Positions 41,393 to 62,859 of a stretch of 64,000 nt of DNA are shown here, in pieces. The position numbers and the translations under genes were made by a program. This DNA comes from Octopus vulgaris (Eukaryota), in assembly GCA_951406725.2 (NCBI GenBank), contig OX597817.1, forward strand, positions 106,020,001 through 106,084,000, read 5' to 3'. Below the pieces are notes generated by a model, which saw nothing but the letters and a program-made list of their open reading frames with translations, was not told the origin of the DNA and searched no databases. How positions within the stretch are numbered: position 1 is the first letter of the stretch; the number at the start of each line of letters is the position of its first letter.

Positions 41393-41524
41393 ATTTATTT
41401 TATAGAAGGAGCTTCTACAGGACTAGAACTGTTTCATTCAAAAGAAATCATCAGGAAGCTTCCTGATGATTTCTTTTGAATGAAACAGTTCTAGTCCTGT
41501 AGAAGCTCCTTCTATAAAATAAAT
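41393..41524. repeat. Perfect 132-bp palindrome (no spacer) encoding a hammerhead motif on each strand
   Basis: Two 66-bp arms centred on GAAG|CTTC (41458/41459), checked base by base. Confidence 0.95.
41457..41507 (+). ncRNA. Type I hammerhead ribozyme motif (identical mirror copy at 41410-41460, minus)
   Basis: Reads AGCUUC-CUGAUGA-U-UUC-UUUU-GAA-U-GAA-ACAG-UUCUAGUC-CUGU-A-GAAGCU. Stem I is 6 bp, stem II is 3 bp with a U.U at 10.1-11.1, stem III is 4 bp, and the triplet is GUA. Confidence 0.75.
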
Positions 41525-41824
41525 TAATTTACTCTGCTATGTATTGAGTACCTTATTTACTGTGGTTAACCCCGACTCAACCCGGGACCTACATATATAT
41601 ATATATATATATACATATATATGGTACATATTTTCTTTTTCTCCTTTTATTCTGTTATTTATTTCAGTCATTTGACAACTGCCATGTTGGAGCACCACCT
41701 TCAGTTGAACAAATTGACCCCAGAACTTATTCTTTGCAAGCCTAGTACTCATTCTATTGGTCGCTTTTTGTCGAACTACTACGTTACAGGGATGTACATA
41801 TTTACCACACAGCCACTCCTATGC

Positions 41825-58653: not shown

Positions 58654-58790
58654 ACAAACCACATCTGAATTTGTTTATACCACATTTTTCTGCTAACACA
58701 GTTTTGCTTTATCCTATATGTACATTAACGATGCACATACAGAGAATCATGCTAGCTTCATTTCTTTCTAAGCTTCACCTGTCCACCATC
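57768..58790 (-). mobile_element. Older RTE-clade LINE 3' portion
   Basis: The minus strand has a WYGHV-like segment (catgaccatact at ~58577), gtggaagaggg matching the GRGRP region, and an RTE-type tail (gttaaatgatga). Confidence 0.55.
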
Positions 58791-58852
58791 ATATATATAT
58801 ATATATGTAATATGTAATTCATATATATATATATATATGTAATATATATGTA

Positions 58853-58982
58853 ATTCTTAAACAAGAATGTTGTTGACAGTGACTTTGAAATTTTCATCAG
58901 CTAAGTCATCATTGACTGTCTGACGAAGGCTTAGCTGACTGAAACTTCAAAGTCACTGTCAAGAATATTCTTGTATAAGAAT
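58853..58982. repeat. Imperfect 130-bp palindrome carrying a hammerhead motif
   Basis: The arms attcttaaacaagaatgttgttgacagtgactttgaa… and …ttcaaagtcactgtcaagaatattcttgtataagaat are reverse complements with scattered mismatches. Confidence 0.9.
58912..58962 (+). ncRNA. Type I hammerhead ribozyme motif (minimal stem III)
   Basis: Reads UUGACUGU-CUGACGA-AGGC-UUAGCU-GACU-GAA-ACUU-CA-AAGU-C-ACUGUCAA. The core is intact with a GUC triplet. Stem I pairs 7/8 and stem II pairs 3/4. Confidence 0.7.
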
Positions 58983-59061
58983 AATAAATTCGTACTCTGC
59001 AAAAGCATAAAGTAATCCATCAGATTAATGTAAATTTGTTTTTATTATAACTCAGTATGAA

Positions 59062-59567
59062 AGATAAAAGACTGAGACCTCTGGAGATATGCTGTGACTG
59101 CGAAGACCCGACAAATAACGTGAGTTCATGGCTGTTTCCTGCACCAGTTTCACATAGCAGCCCTAGCCCATCCAAAGTACCTTGGATTGCAGGACGGCCT
59201 GCTGTGCTTACCTTGGATTGTAGGGCGACCTGCTGTGCTTGAGGAGACCTATTGAGTCAAATACATCAACATAAAAAAATCAAATGGAAATTGTAGTTGT
59301 GATACCTGAGCCAAAGGCACATAAAAAGCACCATCCGAGCGTGGTCGATGCCAGCACCGCCTTGACTGGCTTCCATGCTGGTGGCACATAAAAAGCACCC
59401 ACTACACTCACAGAGTGGTTGGCATTAGGAAGGGCATCCAGCTGTAGAAACACTGCCAGATCAGACTAGAGCCTGGTGCAGCCTCCTGGCTTCCCAGACC
59501 CTGGTCAAACCGTCCAACCCATGCTAGCATGGAAAACAGACGTTAAACGACGATGATGATGATGATG
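59062..59567 (+). mobile_element. RTE LINE 3' end
   Basis: Begins at the DLWRYAV-coding end of the ORF, followed by a 3'UTR like that at 27300-28070 and a (GAT)n tail. Confidence 0.85.
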
Positions 59568-59702: not shown

Positions 59703-60269
59703 AATTAAAAATGAGGGTGTCTAAAAGACACCAACATGCCGAAATAGCAGTCGAAACTCTGACTATAAAACCACGTTAAATGTTCATATCGCACCATGAG
59801 GTAAAGCGGAGGGACAAAACATACAAGCAAAAATTATTGAATAATTCAAGATCCAAGGATTTCTGGTTCTGCTTTAGATAAGCTTTACCGTCATCAATTG
59901 AATATATCAAGGTGCTTATTTTAACCATATCGTACTTATGTGGTGATTTGGTGGGCGATTCAAACTGGCTGTGTCCATACGTGCATATGTATGTATGTAC
60001 GGCGCTCGTATATGTAAGTATATCGTTTGCTGTGCATATATATATCTGTATTTATGTACCCTTGATATATTCAATTGATGACGGTAAAGCTTATCTAAAG
60101 CAGAACCAGAAATCCTTGGATCTTGAATTATTCAATAATTTTTGCTTGTATGTTTTGTCCCTCCGCTTTACCTCATGGTGCGATATGAACATTTAACGTG
60201 GTTTTATAGTCAGAGTTTCGACTGCTATTTCGGCATGTTGGTGTCTTTTAGACACCCTCATTTTTAATT
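59703..60269. repeat. 210-bp apparently perfect inverted repeat (59703-59912 / 60060-60269) with a 147-bp spacer; inverted pLTR-like arrangement
   Basis: The arms were compared by eye and no mismatch was found. Each arm contains an HHR motif. Confidence 0.92.
60069..60128 (+). ncRNA. Variant hammerhead motif (mirror copy at 59844-59903, minus)
   Basis: Reads AUUCAA-UUGAUGA-CGGU…ACCA-GAA-AUCC-UU-GGAU-C-UUGAAU. Stem I is 6 bp, stem III is 4 bp and near-palindromic, and the triplet is AUC. It carries C3U and a C.A at the base of stem II. Confidence 0.6.
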
Positions 60270-60589: not shown

Positions 60590-60902
60590 TAGGATGTTAG
60601 AAAACGCATACATTGCTAGAAATAAGAGCTAAAATGCTCTAATGCAGTAGTTAATGCATATAAATGAAAACATATACACTAACAGGGACCATAATCGTCC
60701 AAAAAGTGCCATTCAAGAATACTTAATACTGACACATCAGTTTCAGTGATTTCCATCACCTCATCAGTTAAGCCAGCTCAGCTTCGGCTCTTTCTGGACT
60801 CACTACACCATTAATATTTATGTTTTCAGTCATGTGCATTAGCTATAGTATCAGAGCATTTAGTTCTTATTTCTTGGAATGTGGGTGTTTTCTAACACCC
60901 TA
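60590..60902. mobile_element. Fold-back element: ~85-bp imperfect inverted arms (60590-60675 / 60818-60902) enclosing a hammerhead; partial direct copy of the left arm at 61166-61272
   Basis: taggatgttagaaaac…cattgctagaaataagagctaaaatgctct…tgaaaacata matches the reverse complement of tatgttttca…agagcatttagttcttatttct…gttttctaacacccta. Confidence 0.8.
60721..60773 (-). ncRNA. Near-canonical type I hammerhead ribozyme
   Basis: Reads GCUUAA-CUGAUGA-GGUGAU-GGAA-AUCACU-GAA-ACUGA-UGUG-UCAGU-A|UUAAGU. All core nucleotides are present. Stem I is 6 bp, stem II is 6 bp with a GGAA tetraloop (G.U at 10.1-11.1), and stem III is 5 bp. Predicted cleavage is after the GUA at 60727. Distal stem I pairing is 60786-60799 with 60697-60710. 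Confidence 0.88.
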
Positions 60903-61575: not shown

Positions 61576-62859
61576 CGAAAGGTGTATGAAAAGTTTTGAG
61601 CCTCAAAAAAACAAAACATGGTATAAGACTTCTGGTGATTTATTTTTCAACATAGTCCCTCTCGATGGCTAAACACTTTCTCCAGCAGTGCTGAAGCGCT
61701 ATTATCCTGGTGCCGAAAAACTCTTATGTTTGAGACTCCAAGAAACATCCTACAGCATTTATGACGTCATTGTCACTGGCAAAATGGTAACCAGCCAGGG
61801 CTTTTTTCATTTTTGGAAATAGATGAAAGACAGAGGGGGCTAAGTCTGGTGAATTAGGCGGATGGGGAACAAGTTCATATCCACAATCACGAATTGTTGC
61901 CATGGCAACCCCTGAGGTGTGTGCTGGAGCATTGTCATGATGAAAAAGGACTCCTCTGGTGAGCATTCCCAGCCTTTTTTCTTTGATTGCTTCTTGGAGG
62001 CACTTCAATAGCTGAGAATAATACAGCCCTGTCCCGGTGTGACCCTATTCAAGGTAATCGATCAGCAAAATGCCTTGAGAATCCCCAAAAATGGACGCCA
62101 TGACCTTACCAGCTGAAGGAATGACCCTGGCCTTCTTTGGGGTTGAAGATGTGTGCTTCCACTGCTTTGATTGTTCTTTGGTTTTAGGCTGGTAGTGATG
62201 AACCCAACTTTCGTCCATAGTAATGAAACAAGCAAGAAAATTCTCTTCATCGGCTTCAAACAGTTCCAGATTGCTCATGGACAAAGTGCATCTGGTGCGT
62301 TTCTGTTCAGGAGTCAAAAGGTGGGGGACCCACCTTGCGCAAACCTTTGAGAACCCAAGTTCTTTTATCACAATATTGTCTGCTCTTTCAGTTGAAATGC
62401 CCAGCCTCTTGGCTATCTGACGACATGATATTCAGCAATCTTGCATTATCATACCAAGAGCAAGGTCAATATTGTGATTGCAGTTGGAGGTCTCCCTGGT
62501 CTGGGATCAACTTCCACGCTCTCCCTGCCACGCTTGAATTCATTTACCCAGCGTTTGACTGTTGCATATGAAGGAGCATTGTCTGTTAAGGTTCTCACCA
62601 TATTTTCATGGATTTCTGATGGAGTCATGCCTTTCAAATGAAGGTACTTTAAGACAGCATGATACTCAGTTTTCTCCATTTTCCTTGTAAACTCGAAGCT
62701 TGTTTATTCTAAAATCTGCAACAAAAAGAATTAAAATATCAGAATCATGAAAATGAGCAAGAATACTCCGAAAAGACTGTACTTACCAGAAAAAAATTGT
62801 TTCAGCTATATAGCAGTGCCGTTTCTAGGTTAGGCTCAAAACTTTTCATACACCCTTCG
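61576..62859 (-). mobile_element. Full-length mariner (Tc1/mariner, DD34D) DNA transposon, irritans/Himar1-like
   Basis: 28-bp TIRs cgaa[a/g]ggtgtatgaaaagttttgagcct (61576-61603, 62832-62859) with 1 mismatch, TA on both sides, total length 1284 bp. Confidence 0.95.
61640..62679 (-). pseudogene. Inactivated mariner transposase
   Basis: Reads MEKTEY…GRP, WVPHLL, MDESWVHHY, SAGKVMASIFGDSQG, FHHDNAPAH, PPNSPDLAPSVFHLF, …RDYVEK*. It has one frameshift (~62475) and in-frame stops (~62432, 62045, 61724). The third catalytic D, 34 residues after the second, is replaced by V. Confidence 0.93.

Follow-up and report, generated by a model that had tools for sequence, protein, structure and literature searches.

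Palindromic hammerhead units of Octopus vulgaris as probable head-to-head leader copies of Hydra-clade Penelope-like elements

Many features of Penelope-like element (PLE) insertions have already been described, among them an inverted pLTR accompanied by a tail, a pLTR that contains TATA and initiator sequences, insertion into (TA)n, hammerhead motifs and pairs of hammerheads on opposite strands. The origin of the tandem and inverted ends, however, is named as an open problem in the available text of PMC8557442. The same source gives the properties by which the Hydra clade is recognized, i.e. RWK, DKG replaced by DKT, a CxCx5C linker, CxxC and CxH around conserved E and N residues, and a GIY-YIG core that lacks CCHH. 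Biochemical data come from PAc (Poseidon, Anolis; Frangieh et al., 2024, PMC11167929), which in vitro introduces nicks into both strands of AT-rich DNA and extends them. Reverse transcription (RT) by PAc starts at two internal sites that flank the tail, uncut RNA is used in vitro and the enzyme is predicted to be a dimer (PMC11167929).

The window analysed here is a stretch of 64,000 nucleotides from O. vulgaris (assembly GCA_951406725.2, contig OX597817.1, positions 106,020,001–106,084,000), and it has two palindromic hammerhead units, which begin at 41393 and 58853. An earlier sequence-only reading had described the latter as a palindromic hammerhead unit, and alignment to its own reverse complement bears this out: across 58853–58982 the inverted repeat is imperfect, being interrupted by mismatches and short gaps, and a type I pattern with its core at 58920 is found on the plus strand. 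The TA-rich left flank, also noted in that reading, is evident in the sequence. It is a target remnant (58789–58852) with a local tandem duplication of ~32 nt; copies of both families to which the two units belong insert into (TA)n.

The inverted, tail-less arm is 65 nt long (58853–58917, minus strand) and, by alignment to the majority sequence of its family and by self-alignment, corresponds to positions +1 to ~+66 of the leader and contains a decayed hammerhead whose core reads CAATGA. Head to head with it is an arm of ~150 nt (58918–59066, plus strand) that holds the leader from +2 to ~+150, with hammerhead and tail; its right edge, at ~59066, is drawn from loose ends and a step in depth. 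The arms meet in GAC-T-GTC (58914–58920), and GAC-A/T-GTC centres recur in the family. The centre, T58917, is 3 nt before the hammerhead core and would mark where the template RNA has its 5′ end (the A of CAGT). The centre had been placed in the 5′ strand of stem I just before the core; the apparent 8-bp 5′ strand of stem I at this place is mostly sequence of the inverted arm, and the element's own part is CAGT. An AT-rich motif (58980–59000, plus strand) lies across the short end, the point at which arms without a tail terminate. This motif, AATAA(T)AAAT...TACTCTGC, is common to both units and their families, but the PLE ‘tail’, found on one arm only (58990–59066, plus strand), extends ~77 nt past the short end and not ~20. 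The arm tracks the family majority as far as ~59066. A very abundant repeat begins at ~59067, at the tail end; it replaces the expected (TA)n flank, and the final bases of the tail are lost to it.

A 135-nt contig found in two sequencing runs (X15 and X16, from one study under two organism labels, one of which is possibly the source of the assembly) bridges 58864–58998, including the centre, with four differences. The unit is therefore genomic and an assembly artefact can be rejected, as had been surmised. It has no promoter and no ORF, its predicted fold is a hairpin and not a ribozyme, and it is inert debris of an ordinary, familiar sort. Beyond the inverted pair, the window has just one more fragment, a weak one.

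The decayed type I hammerhead of this unit (58920–58958, plus strand) was recognized by pattern scan, folding and family alignment (A1). It consists of the core (58920–26), an extra base (58927), stem II (58928–40), GAAA (58941–44), a palindromic stem III (58944–53), a predicted cut site after C58954 and the 3′ strand of stem I (58955–58). There is a C-A mismatch in stem II and a U-U mismatch in stem I. The predicted hairpin has −79.5 kcal/mol, versus −31.3 kcal/mol with the hammerhead helices enforced, and thus masks the hammerhead by 48 kcal/mol; in the 41393 unit the figure is 76 kcal/mol. With pairs broken in both stems and the hairpin so far ahead in the model, this copy is unlikely to cut itself, and a role as an active ribozyme switch was rejected. 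In an Rfam scan of the window, hammerhead families were absent from the best 150 of 186 matches, most of which were microsatellites matched to miRNA models. A third type I hammerhead is found on the minus strand at 60713–60775. It is well formed, with stems I, II and III of 5, 6 and 5 bp, is unrelated in sequence to both families and has no inverted partner in view.

The stems of the two units differ in sequence, as had been observed, and this reflects their derivation from two separate PLE families that have hammerheads of their own. The further proposal that the stems had undergone compensatory changes finds no support: covariation among 54 aligned arms of the 58853 family is 0.155 compared with 0.156 for shuffles, 263 of 500 of which are as high, and most of the variation in this family is CpG decay. 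Helix positions are paired in 84.9% of cells of these 54 arms, compared with 17–48% in slid controls, a lenient test given that the structure was drawn from the same sequences. Core positions 4–5, read in 33 arms, are CG in 11, CA in 9 and TG in 8, and so vary as other CpG sites do. It is therefore likely, on this sequence evidence, that the ancestral core was CCGACGA (U4C) and that the canonical-looking core arose by CpG decay. The two arms of the unit carry the two reciprocal decay products, and in runs X15 and X16 the left arm has CC at these positions. U4C is said to lower hammerhead activity in vitro (PMC3088659).

The genome (2.8 Gb in 227 contigs) has many relatives of the 58853 unit. 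A DNA search with the unit gave 1221 first-look candidates, and the 40 that were scored have 86–93% identity; for a 25-mer of the family, with one mismatch allowed, there are 924 matches (control, 0). The 3′ end, ~150 nt past the start of the core, is common to the copies and is followed by (TA)n, and the longer ones have a TATA box upstream, then a UTR of ~1.2 kb, and run into a decayed ORF. At two loci (L181 and L182), which have 1.7 kb in common at 67%, the hammerhead arm is collinear with a decayed RT-endonuclease ORF whose pieces are in line with the arm. The L181 ORF is 42% identical to the ORF of the sister family over residues 302–550, and Hydra-type motifs are found in other pieces as well: RWK and DKT in L184, CxCx5C in L182, and CxxC and CxH in L180. 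The RT and C-terminal endonuclease ORF exists in this family as decayed pieces only, and 13 fetched stretches of 7–9 kb include no full-length copy. ORF pieces that adjoin some loci belong to other LINEs or to PLEs on the opposite strand and were set aside. Judged by its sequence, then, the 58853 unit is an old, decayed copy of the pLTR region of a Hydra-clade PLE, and its PLE origin as such is hardly in doubt.

The 41393 unit (41393–41594, plus strand) is a perfect palindrome with the same layout, its arms meeting at AGCT (+1 at 41457) and its tail ending at ~41594, followed by (TA)n. The claim of a shared architecture holds for this layout, but the units do not form one sequence family: blastn within the window links neither to the other, and the associated ORFs differ. 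The sister family was counted by pattern search (8983 matches to a 25-mer and 5359 to a tail 24-mer, genome-wide), since a DNA search gave none, probably because the words are too common. Long sister copies contain, in order, the TATA box, hammerhead, tail, an open ORF of 712 aa, a microsatellite-like UTR of ~3.1 kb and the next pLTR. The 712-aa ORF was found at L141 and L143 and has YRDD and a C-terminal YIG region. In L141 the ATG is at about +184; RWR, DKT, CxCx5C, CxxC and CxH are present, and there is no CCHH inside the GIY-YIG core as judged by eye in this copy. The ORF has 1120 homologues at ~40% identity, many with PF26215 and a few with PF01541 or PF00078. The ORF itself gave only an unrelated, sub-threshold Pfam match, its C-terminus gave no Pfam match, and a PDB sequence search gave none. 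By eye it resembles the Hydra alignment in the supplement of PMC8557442, yet it differs from Hydra-1_Obim as given there. Tandems of the pLTR type occur at L141, L146 and L147 and inverted long arms at L063, L144, L145 and L149, so that the insertions have the anatomy of EN+ PLEs, with partial tandems forming pLTRs, an inverted copy and a tail at one end.

The presence of Hydra motifs in both ORFs suggests that the two window units derive from two Hydra families, an assignment based on motifs and on comparison by eye with references in a paper's supplement. The 41393 unit comes from a young family with intact ORFs. The microsatellite-like 3′ UTR of ~3.1 kb (L063, L064, L141) travels with the sister element and may seed its own (TA)n targets. 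At L059 a 177-aa frame (minus strand, 1774–2304) is found directly past a sister-family tail.

Units of this geometry are numerous. A strict pattern of two exact 12-mers finds 60 head-to-head palindromes of the 58853 family genome-wide compared with 0 in the control, which argues against chance; head-to-head pairs of the sister family number 2051 compared with 1 in the control. The search for further copies that the sequence-only reading had proposed thus succeeds, and its view of the unit as a recurring product is upheld, since both families make such palindromes repeatedly and with varied junctions. Breakpoints were read at 90 tail-anchored sister loci, namely the tail matches that head the list for contig 1, within its first 41 Mb; these comprise 53 palindromic minis (two irregular), 20 long copies, 10 without a readable core and 7 solo copies. 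The tail is never on the partner arm of the 47 tight minis. Palindromes of the 58853 family have one tail in 18 of 26 cases, none detected in 8 and two in 0. Of 106 sister arms, 71 start within +1 to +6 (the first six bases of AGCTTC), and only 4 extend >3 nt upstream of +1, one of them artefactually. The commonest sister centre is the loop-less AGCT, in 8 of 47. Spans in the 58853 family tell much the same: although 94 was allowed, 49 of the 50 listed are ≤81, with 27 in the class 76–81, 22 shorter and 1 longer, and the 58853 unit has a span of 78 by common anchors.

At their other ends the arms stop at one of two sites, a short one (~+66 to +72) or a long one, which is ~+141 for the sister family and ~+150 for the 58853 family. 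The tail arm is the longer in 20 sister minis, the tail-less arm in 22, and the two are equal in 11; at L063 the tail-less arm holds kilobases more. The two arms of a unit nearly always carry the same variant (46/47, 39/40, 37/37 and 36/37, versus 30.7, 22.8, 20.8 and 16.2 expected). About 12 of 30 inspected solo sister copies end at the short site and have the extra G described below, so that this site can start a cDNA on its own. Individual copies differ in their junctions, and identical types of junction turn up in several sister sequence variants, which indicates that units are made repeatedly and are not descended from one master.

The base at the centre is set off by its distance from a TATA box, in that the 5′ ends of arms accumulate 29–31 nt downstream of one. 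All six sister variants have the TATA box at −29 from +1 (one reads CATAAA), with differing intervening sequence; among 18 long copies of the 58853 family displayed, out of 21 aligned, 10 have it at −29 to −31, counted from the A of CAGT. Sister solo copies joined to (TA)n, found with the pattern TATAT-N-start, provide a second mark: the base before the start is G in 37, C in 8, A in 5 and T in 1 (n = 51, with at least one pair, L308 and L309, a local duplicate). The element's own base at this position is T, C or A, and the G is therefore non-genomic. In the fetched DNA, G makes up 9.6% of bases after TATAT and 34% in TATAT-N-AG, and the binomial p value is 2e-8 on the stricter null. It should be pointed out that the pattern is blind to in-phase joins without an extra base, so that 37/51 is not the share of all solo copies. 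Sister loci outside the pattern, at non-native and non-perfect junctions, have G in 15, T in 4 and C in 3 (n = 22). All eight solo cases with C belong to one sequence variant. In the 58853 family, 14 distinct solo starts showed no extra G before AGTC, 6 of them being direct TA joins.

An extra G marks the capped 5′ ends of L1 insertions (PMC11702581), and by analogy the sister +1 base would be a capped transcription start. That the palindrome centre corresponds to the RNA 5′ end is very probable for the sister family and fairly probable for the 58853 family. Contigs that we guessed to be RNA have native sequence across +1 and no joint, and such contigs cannot reveal starts. Where solo leader copies lie between (TA)n tracts (L299–L328), the target supplies a TA repeat at −30; renewed transcription from +1 is a speculation. 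Hydra-2_Amil, as displayed in the supplement of PMC8557442, also has a TATA run ~30 nt before the bases that precede the hammerhead core, and Hydra elements in general may have this layout.

Each arm includes the entire hammerhead, and none of the 90 sister tail arms starts at the cut site, which suggests that most templates were uncut. Forty sister copies do begin at the cut site of the hammerhead, or adjacent to it, with TA as their neighbour, a count confounded by native TA microhomology, and such starts were for this reason rejected as proof of cleavage. Among the ten inspected, three follow pure (TA)n, two are collapses via an internal repeat and three matches (two units) are palindromes. 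A minor class derived from cleaved RNA may exist. Rare small palindromes at L332 and at L337/L338 have both arms beginning at the cut site, with a TA-rich spacer between them.

The reading we prefer, with a probability of about 0.6, is that two cDNAs are primed from the cut ends of a TA repeat, that each is copied to the first base of the RNA and that they are joined head to head. Both target ends of the cut would prime reverse transcription on a capped mRNA uncut by its hammerhead. The short and long sites would be the two internal RT start sites known in vitro from one PLE, a Poseidon and not a Hydra element. The products would be cDNAs of ~70 nt and ~140–150 nt that both end at +1, copied from a single RNA or from several transcripts of a single source copy, as the sharing of variants by the arms far above chance would indicate. 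Their 3′ ends would then be annealed or end-joined, by way of the self-complementary AGCT in the sister family and with the loss of one base in the 58853 family. The short palindromic stubs would thus represent complete cDNAs of the first 70 and 140–150 bases of the mRNA, an abortive product and not a random truncation, and for transposition at full length a read-through RNA would be required, in which the start sites occur a second time downstream. The joining of two cDNAs, taken as such, is rather probable. Whether Hydra-clade PLEs in general reverse transcribe from two sites in the first 150 mRNA bases, at both target ends, with more than half of insertions being cap-to-cap twins, is an even bet.

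One cDNA might suffice, if it began at the tail site and reached the 5′ end of the RNA, folded back and copied itself, and was cut or joined at the AT-rich short site, with later central deletions to vary the junction. Self-copying predicts the same variant in both arms, as is nearly always seen. There are precedents for parts of such a pathway: a tail produced by endonuclease resolution of an intermediate is suggested in PMC8557442, PAc cleaves at ATT within the pLTR of its own element (PMC11167929), and self-annealing cDNA hairpins have been proposed for L1 foldbacks (PMC11702581), as far as the accessible parts of these papers go. A folded-back strand, however, does not readily account for a tail-less arm that is the longer in 22 of 53 minis and by kilobases in L063, nor for the short-site solo copies with extra G, and at the loop-less AGCT centre two strands would anneal readily, whereas a single strand could hardly prime on it. 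Either arm being longer, together with the solo copies, favours two cDNAs, although later central deletions could also lengthen either arm relative to the other, which weakens the case. On balance we consider a single folded-back cDNA unlikely.

There are two further rival accounts. The centre could be set by RNA processing or structure and not by the cap, either because helix I holds an acceptor (YAG) for splicing or trans-splicing or through stalling of RT at hammerhead stem I on read-through RNA. A YAG is present at the centre in both families, the 58853 family lacks the extra G, and the D. virilis Penelope intron is described as ending at helix I (PMC4209133, in the part available). Against this, sister arms retain the AG and have a non-genomic G before it, and a leader ending in G ahead of a retained AG would not fit splicing there; TATA is fixed at −29 in six variants despite the differing intervening sequence, and genomic copies have no attached upstream exon. 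Processing is thus an improbable explanation. The other account corresponds to the second option of the sequence-only reading, a family of palindromic hammerhead mini-elements that are self-propagating in a MITE-like or retrozyme-like manner, with the ribozyme structure under selection. The thousands of near-identical short units, and a geometry and motif common to two sequences, are what such a family would provide. But the variation and recurrence of junctions noted above do not agree with it, every variant also occurs as long, ORF-linked copies, covariation does not exceed that of shuffles, no tandem arrays of the unit were seen, the hairpin masks the hammerhead in both units and the minis are without the TATA region. 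This view is largely refuted, and we hold it to be very improbable. A MITE with terminal inverted repeats was likewise rejected.

If the joining of two cDNAs at the cap is correct, an inverted, ‘truncated’ PLE pLTR would be a complete cDNA run off the cap, the need of PLEs for tandem, read-through copies for full movement would be explained, and transcription starts could be read from the centres of genomic palindromes. The stubs, a class with thousands of young members, follow rules at the level of single bases (one short end, one long end, a TATA-defined junction and a cap-type G), and these rules connect what is seen in genomes with the finding, made in vitro, that RT starts at two internal sites. 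For annotation, the stubs raise genome-wide numbers of hammerheads by motifs that a hairpin masks or that CpG decay has made to look canonical, and they should not be taken for active ribozymes or MITEs. Two other features of the window can be mentioned. At 59703–60269 there is a perfect 210-nt inverted repeat with a 147-nt spacer and AT-rich flanks, which is young and could be a MITE or another inverted PLE product. The minus strand at 62045–62431 has a 128-aa frame, which we take to resemble a fragment of a mariner/Tc1-type transposase.

Among described elements, Hydra-clade PLEs such as Hydra-1_Obim are closest. Both octopus families resemble them in ORF motifs of the C-terminal endonuclease type, in a terminal hammerhead and in (TA)n insertion, and the clade's motif set is matched in RW(K/R), DKT, CxCx5C, CxxC and CxH (PMC8557442). 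By eye, the hammerhead and ORF sequences of Hydra-1_Obim are unlike those of both families. The sister family, at ~5.3 kb with its 3.1-kb 3′ UTR, is larger than Hydra elements, described there as generally <3 kb, and the tails of ~70 nt (sister) and ~80 nt (58853 family) exceed the 30–40 nt given for them (PMC8557442). EN+ PLEs also have an inverted copy abutting a direct copy and a tail at one end, e.g. Pen2a_Av, and pLTRs with TATA and initiator-like sequences (PMC8557442; PMC3846280). Unlike the insertions in the available parts of those descriptions, the octopus insertion as a whole consists of two leader copies in more than half of the sampled cases, with the junction at one base; the inverted copy is described there as 5′-truncated, and its junction is not tied to a transcription start or cap. 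PAc shares with the octopus families, as read here, the two RT starts flanking the tail, nicking and extension on both strands, an AT-rich target and the use of uncut RNA. It belongs to another clade, however, and its RT starts are inside the ORF, whereas those postulated here are upstream of the ATG; in its accessible portion the PAc account is without inverted junctions or a cap (PMC11167929).

The hammerheads are of the minimal PLE kind (Cervera and de la Pena, 2014, PMC4209133), with the same type I form, an extra base between 9 and 10.1 and a palindromic stem III, the 58853 family differing in its probable ancestral core CCGACGA (U4C). Opposite-strand pairs have been reported in Schistosoma at distances of 100–700 bp (PMC4209133), whereas the pairs found here abut. 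Animal non-LTR retrozymes (bioRxiv 10.64898/2026.07.22.740005) are likewise small, non-coding and PLE-derived with a type I hammerhead, but, as presented in the available text, they are direct tandem arrays of at least two units with intact hammerheads; the 58853 unit, an inverted, promoterless and damaged pair, was therefore rejected as one. In the literature covered, no account was found of PLE palindromes centred on a transcription start or cap, though a prior description may exist among early papers on Penelope structure and promoters. A further parallel is twin priming of L1, in which both target ends are also primed, with microhomology at the inversion junction and an extra G at complete 5′ ends. 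The L1 arms, however, copy adjacent and mostly non-overlapping parts of the RNA, while both arms here copy the same 70 bases, and the outcome is a palindrome (PMC11702581). What the octopus families add to these systems is that the arms stop at one base 29–31 nt behind a TATA box, and that in the sister family this base is preceded by a G of the cap type.
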